Below are positions 1 through 19,660 of a stretch of DNA of 42,963 bases, one piece after another (positions within the stretch are counted from its first letter, which is position 1; every line of letters starts with the position of its first letter). Below the pieces are notes generated by a model that was not told where the DNA came from, did not search any database, and saw only the letters and a list, made by a program, of their open reading frames with translations. The stretch spans positions 1 to 42,963 of IMG/VR virus record IMGVR_UViG_2698536570_000009. The stretch is one strand, 5' to 3'. Position numbers and translations under genes: made by a program. The DNA comes from a virus (Duplodnaviria; Heunggongvirae; Uroviricota; Caudoviricetes).

Positions 1-1248
1 ATGGCACTGAATATTCCATTCAGAAATGCGTACTATCGTTTTGCATCCAGTTACTCATTTCTCTTTTTTATTTCCTGGTCGCTGTGGTGGTCGTTATACG
101 CTATTTGGCTGAAAGGACATCTAGGGTTGACAGGGACGGAATTAGGTACACTTTATTCGGTCAACCAGTTTACCAGCATTCTATTTATGATGTTCTACGG
201 CATCGTTCAGGATAAACTCGGTCTGAAGAATCCGCTCATCTGGTGTATGAGTTTCATCCTGGTCTTGACCGGACCGTTTATGATTTACGTTTATGAACCG
301 TTACTGCAAAGCAATTTTTCTGTAGGTCTAATTCTGGGGGCGCTCTTTTTTGGCCTGGGGTATCTGGCGGGATGCGGTTTGCTTGACAGTTTCACCGAAA
401 AAATGGCGCGAAATTTTCATTTCGAATATGGAACAGCGCGCGCCTGGGGATCTTTTGGCTATGCTATTGGCGCGTTCTTTGCCGGCATATTTTTTAGTAT
501 CAGTCCCCATATCAACTTCTGGTTGGTCTCGCTATTTGGCGCTGTATTTATGATGATCAATATGTGTTTTAAAGATAAGGATCACCAGTGCGTAGCGGCG
601 GATGCGGGAGGGGTAAAAAAAGAGGATTTTATCGCAGTTTTCAAGGATCGAAACTTCTGGGTTTTCGTCATATTTATTGTGGGGACGTGGTCTTTCTATA
701 ACATTTTTGATCAACAACTTTTTCCTGTCTTTTATGCAGGTTTATTCGAATCACACGATGTAGGAACGCGCCTGTATGGTTATCTCAACTCATTCCAGGT
801 GGTACTCGAAGCGCTATGCATGGCGATTATTCCTTTCTTTGTGAATCGGGTAGGGCCAAAAAATGCATTACTTATCGGTGTTGTGATTATGGCGTTGCGT
901 ATCCTTTCCTGCGCGCTGTTCGTTAACCCCTGGATTATTTCATTAGTGAAGCTGTTACATGCCATTGAGGTTCCACTTTGTGTCATATCCGTCTTCAAAT
1001 ACAGCGTGGCAAATTTTGATAAGCGCCTGTCGTCGACGATCTTTCTGATTGGTTTTCAAATTGCCAGTTCGCTTGGGATTGTGCTGCTTTCAACGCCGAC
1101 TGGGATACTCTTTGACCACGCAGGCTACCAGACAGTTTTCTTCGCAATTTCGGGTATTGTCTGCCTGATGTTGCTATTTGGCATTTTCTTCCTGAGTAAA
1201 AAACGCGAGCAAATAGTTATGGAAACGCCTGTACCTTCAGCAATATAG
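1..1248 (+). CDS. LacY-family (oligosaccharide:H+ symporter) MFS sugar permease, apparently complete (415 aa)
   Basis: Translation is hydrophobic with about 12 TM segments; recalled blocks shared with E. coli LacY (e.g. 'ARNFHFEYGTARAWGSFGYA' vs 'RRSNFEFGRARMFGCVGWA', 'FYNIFDQQ', 'GPKNALLIG', 'HAIEVP'). Substrate not assignable. Confidence 0.85.
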   Translation: MALNIPFRNAYYRFASSYSFLFFISWSLWWSLYAIWLKGHLGLTGTELGTLYSVNQFTSILFMMFYGIVQDKLGLKNPLIWCMSFILVLTGPFMIYVYEPLLQSNFSVGLILGALFFGLGYLAGCGLLDSFTEKMARNFHFEYGTARAWGSFGYAIGAFFAGIFFSISPHINFWLVSLFGAVFMMINMCFKDKDHQCVAADAGGVKKEDFIAVFKDRNFWVFVIFIVGTWSFYNIFDQQLFPVFYAGLFESHDVGTRLYGYLNSFQVVLEALCMAIIPFFVNRVGPKNALLIGVVIMALRILSCALFVNPWIISLVKLLHAIEVPLCVISVFKYSVANFDKRLSSTIFLIGFQIASSLGIVLLSTPTGILFDHAGYQTVFFAISGIVCLMLLFGIFFLSKKREQIVMETPVPSAI

Positions 1249-1776
1249 ACGTAAACTTTTCCGGTTGTTGTCGATATCTCCCTATCCCTCAACCGGAAAA
1301 TAATAATACTAAAGTGCTTAGCCCTGCTAATAATCACCTAATCTAAACGCCTCATTCATGTTCTGGTACAGTCGCTCAAATGTACTTCAGATGCGCGGTT
1401 CGCTGATTTCCAGGACATTGTCGTCATTCAGCGACCTGTCCCGTGTATCACGGTCCTGCGAATTCATCAAGGAATGCATTGCGGAGTGAAGTATCGAGTC
1501 ACGCCATATTTCGCTATCAGGATTCTGTGTGATGGTTACATCGCCCGGCCCAGGGCTGTTTAGTCATCAGCGCTTTCTGACAGTGCTGAGATTTCAACCT
1601 GTTGCAGTAAAAATGAGTAGATATAAGGCAAGTGTGCTGCCAAACCTATCTTTTACGGGGTGAAGGTAGATTTCGTTTGAAGGGTATCTGGTGTCCCCTG
1701 CAGACATCTACTTGAGGCGGCAGGGGATTGATTGGAATGGTGTTTTTTAGATGTGAAAAATATTTTACCCGCTATT

Positions 1777-1977
1777 TTACCCATTGGCGCGGCTTAAGAG
1801 CTTATTTTTGAATTCACAATGGTCACGATATAACCATCTTGCTCGTCCGTGGATAACTTTGGCTTTTGGCAGGTCGCCGGACTTAATCCGGTCGTAGATG
1901 AAGGTTTTACCAAAGCCAGTATCGGCCATGATGAATTTCAAATCAACCAGTGAATCAGGTTGTAGTTCGTGTTGCAT
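1777..1977 (-). CDS. AlpA-family prophage regulator / excisionase-like DNA-binding protein
   Basis: 66-aa ORF; 'FIMADTGFGKTFIYDRIKSGDLPKAKVIHGRARWLYRDHCEF' matches the AlpA/Xis-type HTH pattern recalled from CP4-57-type elements; last gene before the host junction. Confidence 0.7.
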   Translation of the reverse strand: MQHELQPDSLVDLKFIMADTGFGKTFIYDRIKSGDLPKAKVIHGRARWLYRDHCEFKNKLLSRANG

Positions 1978-3208: not shown

Positions 3209-3369
3209 ACCGCCTCCCGTTTATTATTTATCTTCTCAGCCAGCCGCTGTGCTTTCAGTGGATTTCTGATAACAGAAAGGCCGGGAAATACCCAGCCTCG
3301 CTTTGTAACGGAGTAGACGAAAGTGATCGTGCCTACCCGGATATTATCGTGAGGATGCTTCATCGCCAT
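3181..3369 (-). CDS. hypothetical small protein (62 aa), uncertain
   Basis: ORF immediately downstream of exo on the same strand; overlaps the 3017..3208 ORF by 28 nt and the exo stop by 10 nt; no recognisable motif. Confidence 0.3.
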
Positions 3370-4046
3370 TGCTCCCCAAATGCAAAACCAATTTCAGCCA
3401 GTGCCTCGTCCATTTTTTCGATGAACTCCGGCACCATCTCGTCAAAACTCGCCATGTACTTTTCATCCCGCTCAACCACGACATAATGCAGGCCTTCACG
3501 CTTCATACGCGGGTCATAGTTGGCAAAGAACCAGGCGTCTTTTCCGGTTACCCACATGCTGTACTGCACCTGGGCCATGTACTCGGACTTAATGGCTTCG
3601 AAACCGCCGAGGCGGAATTTCATAAAGTCGCGGGAGGTGAACGGGCATTTCAATTCGAGGCCGAAATCGTTACTGCAAAGGCCGTCAGGGGAGCATGCAG
3701 TGCGCATGCTCTCGTCACGGAACAGGATCGGAGACTCCGTGACTTTCACGTCAGTAGTGAACTCGAAGAGGGTGCGGGCGTCTTCCTCGTACTGCTTGCC
3801 CCAGGCCAGAGCCTTGGCGTTAACCTCTGGCGCGACGCCGGTGCATACCTCGGCGAGTAGGGTGTGGAAGTAGGACATCTTCATGCCCGTCCATTTGGTG
3901 CCGGAGCGCGGCTTGGAAATGACGTTGTGAGCGTCAGAGGCAGTAATAACTCCGAGTCTCGCCCTTGCCCATGTCTCGCTGCCTTGCTCAATTTGTGCAA
4001 TTGGCCCAAATATTTGCTCAAATTTAATGAGCCACCTGTTATCCAT
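3360..4046 (-). CDS. exo: lambda-type exonuclease (Red-alpha / YqaJ-like)
   Basis: Near-identical blocks to recalled lambda Exo ('LRLGVITAS', '[32 protein letters not shown]', 'CSPDGLC', '[25 protein letters not shown]', C-terminal 'EIGF.FGEQWR'). Start taken at internal ATG 4044-4046 with SD 'AGGAGAGGA'; ORF-track start 4109 would overlap the upstream gene. Confidence 0.9.
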
Positions 4047-4659
4047 ATTTCCTCTCCTTTCGGCAGTTGGCTCTTGGCGGGATGCTAATCCCTCTATTGT
4101 TGTAGCCATGACACCATTTGTGGATGGTTGCTGATTTCACGCCAAAATGATTCGCCGCGGCTCCGGCGCTTTCAAAACGCAACCCATCAACAAACCAGTA
4201 AAACGATGTACTTCTGTTTTCCGCCTGCTTGGTAACCGTTGCCCATCTGCAATTGTCTTTTGAATACGGGCCTTCATTGTTCTTCCGATCTAGCTGATGC
4301 TTAGGCGTAGGAGGTGGCCCCATATCTTCAAGAAATAGCTCGAACGTCAGCCATCTTTCGCAGATACCGCGCTTACTGTATTTTTCGAAGTCTTTGTTGT
4401 TCGGGTTCGTGCAGCGGTTTTTCATTCCGCTCCAAATCCTGTAAACGCGGGTATTTCGCTGGCCGTGAGTGGCGTTTTTTCCTGCCATGCATCCGCAGCT
4501 GCTTATTGAACTGTTTTTAAGCTGATTTGCGGCTCTATAGCAGGAATTACCGCACACACAAAGGCATAGATACATCCTTCTACCTCTCAGCATGTGCGAG
4601 CATTCTTTGACGGTTAAGTGCCCATATTTTTCACCGGGCATAAGTGGATTGGCGTTCAT
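4039..4659 (-). CDS. HNH-like (homing-endonuclease-type) protein inserted between the recombinase and exo
   Basis: 206 aa; Cys/His-rich; block '[42 protein letters not shown]' resembles a block I recall from phage free-standing HNH endonucleases (family not verified). Start overlaps the recombinase stop (ATGA); ends 2 nt before exo start. Confidence 0.55.
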
Positions 4660-5573
4660 GCTGCCGCCTTTTGCCTGAGGAACCCGAGAGCCTTAACACC
4701 TTCCATTTCTGTCAGGTCGGCTGGCTGCGAGATAGGGCGTTTGAAAATGCGTGAACAGAGAGGGAGAAGATCGGCATCCCATGTCTTATCCAAAGAGACA
4801 AGGAGGTCGTTTATCTCTTTCTGCGTGGCTTCGCTAAGCGGCGTTATATCGCGCTCAGGCTGACGCTCTGCTGTAAAGTTGATACCTTCTTCGCCCTCGG
4901 TGTTAACGTGGTCTATGGCGGCGTCCAGGCGCTCACGGCGAGGCCAGTATTTTGCTGCCTGCTTCACGACCGTCTTGAGGATCATCTGCTCTTCATCGGT
5001 GACCCATGGACACTTCTTGCTATTGTCGGATTTGTACTTCTTCCACGCTTCTGAGCGGTCACGGATGGAGTAGATGGCATCGATGCGCATCGTATGGGTG
5101 AGGTAATCACCATCGTCAGTTTTTACCGTTACATACGCGCCTACGATGTCCCCGCGCTGCTCTTCAGTATCGAAGTCGTTGTAGATGTGGATTGGCGGCT
5201 TATCGAGCCCCTCGCGGCGGAACTGGTCGTTTCTTCGAACAATAGCCGACTGGCACCACTTAATGGCGCCAGACTGCTGCGCGATGTGCATCAGGCCCAT
5301 GTAACTGATGTCTAGGCAAATAGCCCCTTTACGCGGAACCAGGTAAGCCAGCTTCTGAGCTGGGTTTAGCGAAATACCGATAGCCGCAACGTTGATGATT
5401 GCGTTCTGTGTGCTGGTCTGGTTCTGGAAAGCGACTTTCGCGAGGTAGTCGTTGTTCTGAAATAGTTGGATGGCAAACTGGCTTTCCTTCGCCCACACCA
5501 TCCGCTCGTCTGTGGCCGCCTTCATGAAAAGCGGCTCCTGTTGTTTGACGAAATCAACAAGGGTTAAGCTCAT
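4656..5573 (-). CDS. single-strand annealing recombinase, RecT-like core with lambda Bet-like C-terminal tail
   Basis: N-terminal 230 aa show RecT-like blocks ('[10 protein letters not shown]', '[16 protein letters not shown]', '[24 protein letters not shown]'); C-terminal about 70 aa ('[12 protein letters not shown]...LDKTWD.DLLPLCS.IF...VKALGFL.QKAA') closely match the recalled C-terminus of lambda Bet. SD 'GGAGGGG' upstream. Confidence 0.85.
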
Positions 5574-5582
5574 AGCCCCTCC

Positions 5583-5864
5583 TTAAAATGGGCAGGTTGG
5601 ATGAAGGCGATCCCACTCTTCTTCGGCGCGGTCGTAACAGATGCGTGTGACATAGTCGTTATAGGCTTCCTCTGCCTTTTCACCGACTAGTGCCATTTGC
5701 GCTTCTTTTGGGAGAAACAGGCTACTCATTTGCAGAGCATATTTCGGGAACATGGCGATCAGTTCTTTCGCCCGGTCGTCGATCCACTTCTCTTTCTCGT
5801 CGGTGAGTTGCTGCTCAACCCACCGCCGATCTTCGATGCGGTCGTAAGTGAGGTATGCGTTCAT
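5583..5864 (-). CDS. hypothetical phage early protein (93 aa)
   Basis: ORF co-oriented in the leftward early operon; acidic; no family recognised. Confidence 0.5.
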   Translation of the reverse strand: MNAYLTYDRIEDRRWVEQQLTDEKEKWIDDRAKELIAMFPKYALQMSSLFLPKEAQMALVGEKAEEAYNDYVTRICYDRAEEEWDRLHPTCPF

Positions 5865-5871
5865 GGTTGCC

Positions 5872-6843
5872 TCAGTAATGAATTTTCGCGCAGGGGATCA
5901 GGTCATCTTTCAGAGCGGTAAGCACTTCGATAGCCTGCTCTCGGGTTAAGCTGGTTTGGCTGGTGAGCGCGTTAACGATGTTGGTGCCGACCGTCTTGCG
6001 GTGCTTAACGTCAGCTTCACGCTTTGCCTGCTCATCGGCGAGGCGCTTCTCTTCGGCCAGGCGGGCATCTTCGGCCTGTTTGGCCTTCAGGCGCTCGGCT
6101 TCAACCGCCGCGGCTTTTTCGCGTTCCGCCCGGGCTTCCGCTTCCTGCTTCTCGCGAGCTGCACGCTGTTCCGCTTCGACGCGCTGGCGCTCCGCCAGTT
6201 CAGCGCGGGCTTTCTCTTCGGCTTCACGGCGCGCTGCGGCTTCAATCTCCGCTTTGTGCTTCGCTTCGGCATCGCAGCGGGCTTGTTCTGCCGCTTCCTG
6301 TTTCAGCCGCTCATCACGTTCACGCTGAGCCTGTTCCGCCAGACGGCGCTGCTCTTCGCGGTCACGGTCAAAATCCTTGTTCATCAGTAGAGCCATTTCG
6401 TGGTCCGCTTCGAACTTGGCAGCCAGCTCCTGATCGAACCTGATGTTCATCTCCAGCGCTTCGGCGTGCATCGCGTTCATGGCTTCTTCAGCCTTAATGC
6501 GTTCCTGCTCGGCTTCCCATTCGGTGAGTGGGCGGCGGGTCGCATCGCGCAGCTCGTCGCAGGCATCAACGAATCGCTTAATTTCGGCCTCGGCAGGGCG
6601 TACAGCCTCTTTCAGGCGCTTCAGGTACTCACGGCCCGGCTTTTCGATTGCCGTCTTGCTGCGGGACACCTGCGCTGCCAGAGAGGCAACACGGTCACGG
6701 CCTTTCTTCGTGGACAGGTCCGGCACTTCGTTTACAGCCTGGCGGATTTGCTCAAGGTACGCGTCAAGGCCGCCCGCTACGTAAAGCACTGGGGCCTGTT
6801 CCGGCTTGATTTCGATGACAGTTAAGTCCGTTACTTCGCTCAT
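5872..6843 (-). CDS. coiled-coil protein with long A/E/R/K-rich repetitive central region
   Basis: 323 aa; strong SD 'AGGAGA' before ATG; central about 150 aa of EAERAA/KQEAE-type repeats; the GC-rich repeat generates spurious antisense ORFs 5956..6443. Confidence 0.6.
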   Translation of the reverse strand: MSEVTDLTVIEIKPEQAPVLYVAGGLDAYLEQIRQAVNEVPDLSTKKGRDRVASLAAQVSRSKTAIEKPGREYLKRLKEAVRPAEAEIKRFVDACDELRDATRRPLTEWEAEQERIKAEEAMNAMHAEALEMNIRFDQELAAKFEADHEMALLMNKDFDRDREEQRRLAEQAQRERDERLKQEAAEQARCDAEAKHKAEIEAAARREAEEKARAELAERQRVEAEQRAAREKQEAEARAEREKAAAVEAERLKAKQAEDARLAEEKRLADEQAKREADVKHRKTVGTNIVNALTSQTSLTREQAIEVLTALKDDLIPCAKIHY

Positions 6844-19506: not shown

Positions 19507-19581
19507 GGGTCAGTCGTATAAAGGTCATTACGGAAGGCTGTTAACCTTCTTATCGTGGTTCGAGTCCACGCTGTCCCGCCA
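19507..19581 (+). tRNA. tRNA-like gene, Asn(GUU)-like anticodon arm, non-canonical 5' half (possible pseudo-tRNA)
   Basis: 3' half is canonical (T-arm CGTGG-TTCGAGT-CCACG, acceptor plus GCCA); anticodon stem-loop GAAGG-CUGUUAA-CCTTC; acceptor stem has one T-T mismatch and the D-stem is weak. Confidence 0.45.
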
Positions 19582-19584
19582 AAT

Positions 19585-19660
19585 TCGCCTGTAGCTCAGA
19601 GGAAAGAGCAACCGCCTTCTAAGCGGTTGGTCGCTGGTTCGAATCCAGCCAGACGAGCCA
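19585..19660 (+). tRNA. tRNA-Arg (anticodon UCU)
   Basis: Cloverleaf: D-arm GCTC-AGAGGAAA-GAGC, anticodon arm ACCGC-CTTCTAA-GCGGT, T-arm GCTGG-TTCGAAT-CCAGC, 3' CCA; one C-A mismatch in the acceptor stem. Confidence 0.7.

Follow-up and report, generated by a model that had tools for sequence, protein, structure and literature searches.

The sequence analyzed here, termed the window, is the full 42,963-nucleotide stretch of IMG/VR virus record IMGVR_UViG_2698536570_000009 (Caudoviricetes), which is a 100% match to a prophage of Escherichia coli AW1.7; coordinates are window positions and the genes under study lie on the minus strand. In order of transcription, these are gamL (5583–5864), a gene for a RecT-family single-strand annealing protein (SSAP), an open reading frame (ORF) of 206 codons designated ORF206, and exo, which encodes a lambda-type exonuclease (Table 1). 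ORF206 is probably a free-standing homing endonuclease gene of the PacI type, with a predicted activity and a predicted target. An earlier reading of the DNA letters (the sequence-only reading) had placed a Cys/His-rich protein of this length between the recombinase and exo, and both points were confirmed: the Prokaryotic Genome Annotation Pipeline (PGAP) calls the same ORF206 coordinates in E. coli AW1.7, Pfam identifies both flanking genes, and the ORF206 protein contains 12 Cys and 7 His. Outside its N-terminus, Exo shares 90% amino acid identity with phi80 Exo. The G+C content of ORF206 is 47.7% versus 53–55% in the flanks, and at third codon positions it is 52.7% versus 71.4% in exo.

Upstream, the 4-nt overlap described in the sequence-only reading is present, with the recT stop codon TGA overlapping the ORF206 ATG in the sequence GCAGCATGAAC. 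The 2-nt spacer described downstream is not; the exo ATG (4046–4044) precedes the ORF206 stop codon TAA (4041–4039), giving an 8-nt gene overlap, ATGGATAA (4046–4039). A strong Shine-Dalgarno sequence for exo, AAGGAGAGG, lies within ORF206 at 4059–4051. A scan of the region for a promoter or terminator belonging to the inserted segment itself gave counts no better than chance.

ORF206 is not a chance ORF, because it has homologs at E values of 1e-138 to 1e-20 and a median pairwise ratio of nonsynonymous to synonymous substitution rates (dN/dS) of 0.13 over 25 copies. All 25 copies (15 alleles) are free of internal stop codons. Two candidate cases of decay were considered and rejected. In E. 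coli EF7-18-51 (locus L008, 3180–3800), RefSeq lists a 128-residue "HTH domain protein" starting at an internal Met; this call is an annotation artifact, because the full 206-codon ORF is itself intact. In E. coli PEC148 (L009, 3493–6617), the ORF206 homolog was truncated by IS3-family elements, which took out most of recT together with the first ~30 codons of the homolog. Separately, in homolog P0118 the RecT C-terminus is fused to the ORF206 N-terminus and the sequence then runs out of frame, which suggests a frameshift or an assembly error at the ATGA junction.

Table 1. Features of the recT–ORF206–exo region, in window positions
Feature	Position	Strand	Description and basis
ORF206	4039..4659	-	ATG-started, 206 amino acids; PacI-like His-Me-finger (HNH-superfamily) endonuclease-like protein
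recT, RecT-family SSAP gene, upstream flank	4656..5573	-	Pfam RecT, E 1.3e-29
exo, lambda-type (YqaJ) 5'-3' exonuclease gene, downstream flank, chimeric 5' end	3360..4046	-	Pfam YqaJ, E 1.7e-31
Left junction ATGA, SSAP stop TGA overlapping ORF206 ATG	4656..4659	-	Alignments with phi80, CobraSix and Klebsiella phages with and without the ORF
Right junction, exo Shine-Dalgarno in the ORF206 3' end plus 8-nt overlap	4039..4059	-	Sequence reading; PGAP coordinates concur
Mobile cassette of ~730 bp, comprising ORF206 and ~120 nt of the exo 5' end	3927..4655	-	98–100% identity between E. coli RecT and Klebsiella Bet backgrounds
Replaced exo 5' end (codons 1–18)	3993..4046	-	Not homologous to the exo start (MTPEIILARTGIDV...) in insert-less alleles
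N-terminal beta zinc ribbon (residues 10–57; C34, C36, C55, C57)	4489..4632	-	Model strands 15–24, 27–34, 39–43
Catalytic-type core (residues 65–150), helical region then beta-beta-alpha	4210..4467	-	Helices 71–113, strands 122–125/137–140, helix 142–147
Beta-beta-alpha-Me motif (residues 122–148; D124-R125, Y132, N136, N148)	4216..4296	-	Alignment to PacI GVDRSDSFEGYSPQNARLAC..CN (D92-R93, Y100, N104, N113)
C-terminal helix-turn-helix DNA-binding-type domain (residues 153–203)	4051..4203	-	Pfam HTH_28, E 0.0025, residues 164–191, below the curated cutoff

Filled and empty junctions and a chimeric exo

Universal presence of the gene at this position would have refuted the sequence-only reading; alignment of the junctions revealed empty sites in close relatives. 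In phi80 and in Enterobacter phage CobraSix, the same recT and exo (~90% nucleotide identity) meet in a direct ATGA overlap without an intervening ORF, and the junction is also empty in E. coli G3/10 and M37H. The window recT is 97–100% identical to the insert-less G3/10 allele up to the junction, and the ATG found there is the start codon of exo in insert-less alleles. A second background was provided by Klebsiella phage ST16-OXA48phi5.2, in which ORF206 (97% amino acid and ~98% nucleotide identity) lies between exo and a Bet-type SSAP gene, the product of which is unrelated to RecT save for a similar C-terminal tail. This phage is the sole carrier among 17 Klebsiella phage records sharing bet at 96.5–100%; the other 16 lack ORF206. 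The empty junction of Klebsiella phage 2b LV-2017 has the sequence GGCAGCATGA/CACCAGAAATTATCCT, and exo there has the canonical MTPEIIL start. All three of phi80, CobraSix, and Klebsiella 2b have exactly the 26-mer GGCAGCATGACACCAGAAATTATCCT, which the cassette splits.

Surveys of larger collections gave the same picture. The intact 26-mer was found in at least 120 IMG/VR contigs (29 RecT, 81 Bet) and a filled junction in 22 (RecT in 12, with two subtypes; Bet in 6; partial in 4), with the ORF at full length wherever the contig allows. Among 5,426 E. coli genomes, lambda-type exo DNA was matched in 3,571 and ORF206 was present in 11. The phi80-type recT occurs in 72 genomes, 59 of which carry laboratory phi80 remnants; of the wild strains, 11 have ORF206 and 2 do not. 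Given its absence from phi80, CobraSix, and most exo-bearing E. coli genomes, ORF206 is not a core component of the Red/RecET operon. The filled/empty polymorphism has the same ATGA breakpoint in RecT and Bet backgrounds, and three or more SSAP backgrounds share the same boundaries.

The insertion is not placed exactly between two intact genes, as had been supposed from the sequence. Immediately after the ATGA, the window diverges wholly from insert-less alleles, and homology returns only at GAGCAAGG (the EQG motif, ~3992). Because the divergence runs from ATGA to GAGCAAGG, the MTPEIILARTGIDVSTV N-terminus of Exo has been swapped for a new one, and the first ~17 exo codons are replaced in comparison with insert-less alleles. 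The variant exo start is found in exactly the 11 E. coli genomes that have ORF206 and in no other of the 5,426. In Klebsiella phage ST16-OXA48phi5.2, exo carries the cassette variant at 60/60 informative sites from 4036 to 3927, is mixed from there down to ~3860, and is then of the local Klebsiella type found without the ORF, while its bet gene is 98.6% identical to that of an ORF-minus phage up to the stop codon. A patch of ~730 bp (4655 to ~3927) has therefore been transplanted between local backgrounds, and ORF206 has a history different from that of its flanks; when the E. coli and Klebsiella backgrounds are compared, these flanks either show no relationship or reach only ~83% identity. 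The flank demonstrably traveling with ORF206 consists of ~120 nt of exo only; the upstream SSAP gene is local up to its stop codon. From the sequences, the chimeric 5' end of exo appears to be the kind of trace that a co-conversion tract would leave. Among the E. coli prophages that carry the ORF, both the gam-proximal and the exo-distal flanks vary and the region is visibly mosaic.

A related observation concerns the RecT C-terminus. Its last ~50 residues (4656–4810) match the Bet-type PHROG phrog_252 and resemble the C-termini of Klebsiella Bet and of the RecT and ERF partners of other YqaJ exonucleases (LTE.EA.KAL.FL..KA.AA). By sequence this segment looks like a shared exonuclease-docking tail placed on unrelated annealing-protein cores; such a tail would also account for the conservation of GGCAGCATGA at the junction whatever the SSAP family.

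In deeper relatives, the closest metagenome homologs of ORF206 all lie directly upstream of a YqaJ-type exo, with RecT on the other side in P0002 (68% identity), P0003 (62%), P0006 (52%), and P0010 (46%) and ERF in P0008 (48%). Relatives of these exo genes also occur in IMG/VR without the ORF upstream, at 22 loci for the exo linked to P0006 (29–70% identity) and at 5 loci for the exo linked to P0010 (76–87%); in the two of those loci that were checked, recT and exo overlap by 4 nt with no ORF between them. In each of the lineages examined, therefore, the ORF occurs only sporadically but keeps to a single site. With empty RecT/exo junctions in at least three lineages, an obligate partnership with exo was rejected as the leading model. 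One ORF-less RecT/exo relative (L190) carries a family member (E 1e-42) at 4491–5015, ~800 nt downstream of exo, another site of insertion within this region.

The wider family is very large, with 200,853 clusters at 50% identity (E ≤ 1e-3) or 91,527 at E ≤ 1e-30, and has no Pfam model on its core. Searches with tblastn located relatives in 907 phage records, scattered over unrelated genome positions. Distant members (35–37% identity) stand in unrelated contexts. Family members in Staphylococcus Twortvirinae, for example, neighbor the endolysin gene, and the one in Pseudomonas phage D3 is flanked by a DksA-like gene and ninB. Relatives in BFVD are named "HNH endonuclease," "HTH homing endonuclease," or "AP2," or are uncharacterized, and NCBI names close ORF206 copies "helix-turn-helix domain-containing protein." Many family representatives (P0130–P0279) are 350–900 residues long and carry the module or its zinc ribbon as 2–11 tandem repeats.

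A His-Me-finger core with PacI-type residues

The AlphaFold2 model of ORF206, built on 99 sequences, has a mean predicted local distance difference test score of 92.7 and is modular, with an N-terminal zinc ribbon, a nuclease-type core, and a C-terminal helix-turn-helix (HTH) domain that would give site recognition. The zinc-ribbon cysteines are conserved in 79–86 of ~89 non-gap sequences, and the Pfam CapR zinc-ribbon model matches homolog P0011 over the corresponding region. In the core, H65, W76, R82, C83, C100, W103, F109, D/E124, R125, Y132, N136, C137, R138, W139, and N148 are invariant or nearly so. The core has the beta-beta-alpha-metal fold of His-Me-finger nucleases; a nuclease fold, the lack of which would have refuted the sequence-only reading, is thus detected. 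The C-terminal domain is similar to the HTH modules of homing endonucleases: at their C-termini, family members match I-TevI_DNA-bd (two members, best E 7e-5) or NUMOD1 (one member), and the top Foldseek match in the PDB was the I-TevI DNA-binding domain, although this match was weak.

The "HNH block" named in the sequence-only reading did not survive profile searches. No Pfam HNH family matched at E ≤ 1 in ORF206, in its 99 aligned relatives, or in 10 longer or phage relatives annotated "HNH endonuclease," and Pfam and NCBIfam scans of the same sequences placed no NUMOD4 or AP2 model on the core; ORF206 itself had no NCBIfam match. Sequence and profile searches of the PDB returned chance matches only (papillomavirus E6 and phage Mu Ner). 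The label "HNH endonuclease" comes from PHROGs only (phrog_374, E 2e-50). A canonical HNH domain elsewhere in longer members was considered as the origin of that label and rejected, as no HNH model matches those members. At the end of beta strand 1, where the HNH general-base histidine is expected, ORF206 has R125, which is invariant in 99/99 members. Both a curated-profile match and the histidine are thus absent, and ORF206 is best regarded not as a canonical HNH protein but as a candidate PacI-type one, with a tyrosine in the loop as the predicted substitute for the histidine.

PacI is a small, solitary bacterial restriction enzyme, reportedly assigned to His-Me-finger "group 20" of Jablonska et al. 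2017. It was the best structural match for ORF206; the PacI sequence used for the comparisons was identical to PDB 3ldy/3m7k. PacI lacks the HNH histidine and has a tyrosine in the inter-strand loop instead, with the metal held by an Asp and an Asn (PMC5714182, PMC4081073, PMC11529989), and its catalytic set has been given as "H, DR, Y after DR, CxxCN" (PMC11529989). In PacI and in the ORF206 model a Cys4 zinc ribbon is followed, collinearly, by a beta-beta-alpha-metal core, and both proteins contain the pattern [LV]-D-R-x6-Y-x3-N-x-R-x-A...N with an upstream His. Each has a loop tyrosine, and each has an arginine where HNH proteins have their histidine. PacI and the ORF206 family do not differ in the spacing D-R-x6-Y-x3-N. 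ORF206 has the residue set H...D-R...Y...N, which is retained by 94–99 of the 99 family members (H65 in 94, D/E124 in 99, R125 in 99, Y132 in 99, N136 in 99, and N148 in 97). The hhalign alignment pairs H65 with H42, D124-R125 with D92-R93, Y132 with Y100, N136 with N104, R138 with R106, and N148 with N113. It also pairs the cysteines of the first zinc site (C34/C36/C55/C57 in ORF206 with C4/C7/C24/C27 in PacI). The second site is matched in part: C83 aligns with C63, C100 falls near C66, and C137 is conserved, while PacI C109-x-x-C112 has no counterpart.

ORF206 differs from PacI in lacking the CxxC directly before the Asn and in having a longer helical insert (residues 65–120) and the extra C-terminal HTH. 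The two belong to different PHROGs, and their relationship is at the level of sequence motifs only (hhalign P ~1e-3). Comparisons of the ORF206 family with the PacI sequence and with a PacI alignment of 9 sequences gave hhalign P values of 0.0046, 0.0021, and 0.0011 and probabilities of 8–20%, and a profile search of the PDB with the ORF206 family did not retrieve PacI at E ≤ 10. The profile–profile comparison is not decisive, because a search for PacI homologs returned 9 clusters, too few for the purpose; the ORF206 family, by comparison, comprises ~200,000 clusters at 50% identity. PacI, like ORF206, is under the Pfam HNH threshold (E 0.027). Because PacI itself fails that threshold, the negative Pfam result for ORF206 is no argument against the fold.

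A homing model and its alternatives

The sequence-only reading had proposed an HNH homing endonuclease inserted in a Red-like recombination operon, with the potential to drive exchange of the recombination genes beside it. Its details of enzyme type and junctions needed correction, but its core idea, a mobile gene of the homing endonuclease type in this operon, is upheld by comparison: close relatives lack the gene at this junction, RecT and Bet operons carry the cassette at one and the same nucleotide, and the 5' end of exo is chimeric. ORF206 is free-standing, being neither intron- nor intein-borne, and in the mechanism proposed it would encode an enzyme of the PacI type within the His-Me-finger/HNH superfamily. 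With an arginine at the place of the catalytic histidine, the loop tyrosine, helped by a distal histidine, would activate or provide the nucleophile, and the Asp and Asn would hold a single metal ion. The cassette sits at the stop/start overlap of the SSAP and exo genes, taking over the original exo ATG and the ATGA translational coupling. It brings a new Shine-Dalgarno sequence for exo and replaces the start and N-terminus of that gene, and exo would thus not be silenced. ORF206 would be transcribed as part of the early leftward operon, along with the genes for Gam, the annealing protein, and Exo. Its product may cut or nick the alleles that lack the insert, in lambdoid phages that co-infect or already reside in the cell, close to or within the conserved junction GGCAGCATGA/CACCAGAAATTATCCT; where the cassette is present, it splits this junction. 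Repair of the break from the cassette-bearing genome would then fall to the Red-type functions of the flanking genes, and the gene and a short exo tract would be copied to the recipient.

Several observations weigh against a homing endonuclease. The predicted nuclease function of the ORF206 family derives from sequences and a structural model. Down to 44% identity, every subfamily member adjoins exo, the identities of the ORF and of exo co-vary (68/73, 62/60, 52/43, and 48/40%), purifying selection is strong, and there are no decayed copies among the 25; linkage, co-variation, and selection would also fit a useful accessory gene. Lambdoid mosaicism, meaning homologous recombination at conserved gene boundaries, could generate the same filled/empty and chimeric patterns in a nuclease-free manner. 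In Skunavirus, the sole PacI-like free-standing gene tested was not among the two reported to cut plaque numbers (PMC12724721).

A useful accessory gene could take the form of a nuclease of the Red-like module that makes or processes DNA ends (double-strand breaks, nicks, or branched structures) for Exo and the SSAP and that was lost in many lineages. We consider this unlikely, but it would explain why the close homologs examined (68% to 44%) all precede a YqaJ/lambda-type exo, whether the SSAP is RecT, Bet, or ERF, and why their identities track those of exo. The low dN/dS without pseudogenes, the translational coupling of ORF206 on both sides, and the provision by the cassette of the exo N-terminus and Shine-Dalgarno sequence also suit such a role, as do the 11 wild E. 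coli strains with ORF206, versus 2 without it, among those with this recT type and the distant relative beside the NinB and NinG recombination genes in Pseudomonas phage D3. What it leaves unexplained is that most lambda-type exo operons do without the gene (11 versus 3,571 E. coli genomes), that it is absent from 16 of 17 related Klebsiella phages, from phi80, and from exo relatives of 69–87% amino acid identity in other lineages, that distant family members occupy unrelated places such as those beside endolysin genes, and that the cassette moves as a discrete patch between local backgrounds. ORF206 could also be a passenger moved by ordinary mosaic recombination through short conserved crossover points, with its own activity playing no role in the spread. 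The left boundary is the short sequence GGCAGCATGA common to all alleles, the right boundary falls in a conserved part of exo, and the region around the cassette is mosaic among the ORF-bearing E. coli prophages. We nevertheless regard a passenger as quite improbable: the product has a conserved nuclease-type active site and an HTH in the style of homing endonucleases, the boundaries are identical in at least three SSAP backgrounds, and the family is scattered and multi-copy, as is typical of homing endonuclease genes. The active site also bears on whether ORF206 is a catalytically dead His-Me-finger DNA-binding protein, for instance a regulator, in parallel to the Smad MH1 domain. The invariant arginine at the general-base position and the NCBI annotation of close copies as HTH proteins point that way, and inactive His-Me groups without His and Tyr are known (PMC5714182). 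This proposal appears very improbable in view of the conservation, in 94–99 of 99 members, of the full PacI catalytic set including the loop tyrosine and both metal ligands, and PacI, an active enzyme, has the same D-R pair.

If ORF206 is indeed a homing endonuclease gene, a narrower proposal can be offered tentatively, with more doubt than confidence. The ORF206 subfamily may consist of tyrosine-type (PacI-like) homing endonucleases specialized on the Red-like SSAP/exo junction and retained there even where identity has fallen under 50%, whether the upstream partner is RecT, Bet, or ERF, as a self-contained cut-and-copy drive between E. coli and Klebsiella phages. In that event, the co-expressed Gam, SSAP, and Exo would be the very proteins that protect and repair the break made by ORF206. 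By extension, the parent family (~90,000–200,000 clusters, no Pfam model) would be a major unrecognized class of histidine-less homing nucleases.

Relation to known mobile endonucleases and neighboring genes

Virulent phages are well known to carry free-standing homing endonuclease genes. To our knowledge, clear pairs of filled and empty sites in the recombination operons of temperate lambdoid phages are not a textbook case. The closest parallels in genetic behavior are SegF, SegG, and MobE of the T4 type and the free-standing genes of Skunavirus, which are likewise wedged between conserved operon genes without inactivating them, show presence/absence polymorphism among close relatives with a short co-inherited flank, and are expressed with phage recombination functions. 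The catalytic families differ, Seg enzymes being GIY-YIG and Mob enzymes canonical HNH proteins; cleavage and marker exclusion have been demonstrated for the Seg and Mob enzymes, whereas ORF206 is known here as a sequence. Its temperate lambdoid prophage host and its site at a Red-type SSAP/exo junction also set it apart from them. "PacI-like" free-standing HNH genes have been seen in Skunavirus phages by HHpred (PMC12724721).

Homing endonucleases of the I-HmuI/HNH_3 type share with ORF206 a nuclease core joined to an HTH-type tail and a sporadic, phage-borne distribution, and I-HmuI residues D74, H75, and N96 (PMC12724721) correspond in position to ORF206 D124-R125 and N148. ORF206 differs from this type in having no Pfam HNH_3, zf-His_Me_endon, or NUMOD match, an Arg for the catalytic His, and an N-terminal zinc ribbon, and in not being intron-encoded. 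A precedent for a non-canonical His-Me finger with remote similarity only is F-CphI of cyanophage S-PM2 (Endo VII type, "DHHRN"), which proved to be a free-standing homing endonuclease (PMC6083498). F-CphI retains the Endo VII residues D-H-H-R-N, histidines included, whereas ORF206 has the PacI-type D-R...Y...N.

The homing hypothesis is directly testable, with an empty site in phi80 and a filled site in a sequenced E. coli isolate. phi80 is a standard laboratory phage, and a remnant of it is present in DH5alpha- and DH10B-type strains. A testable function is also offered for a very large phage family that is labeled "HNH endonuclease," "HTH protein," or "hypothetical" and has no curated model; its conserved residues predict PacI-style tyrosine chemistry, not that of the HNH histidine. 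An active ORF206 would be a natural site-specific nuclease that co-evolved with Red functions, with a bearing on phage mosaicism and possibly on recombineering.

Other features of the window were recorded alongside. Upstream of recT, in the region 5583–6843, GamL (93 residues) is followed by a highly charged, Glu/Arg/Ala-rich protein of 323 residues, the phi80 homolog of which is annotated "agt/Mog, anti-toxin for Gam"; its gene is absent from some relatives that carry ORF206 and from some that do not. At one end of the window (1–1977), the prophage abuts a CscB-like oligosaccharide permease gene (1–1248), beyond which comes a TorI-like excisionase gene (1777–1977), with no integrase ORF between these two genes. 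Adjacent tRNA genes for Asn(gtt) and Arg(tct) lie inside the prophage at 19507–19660.

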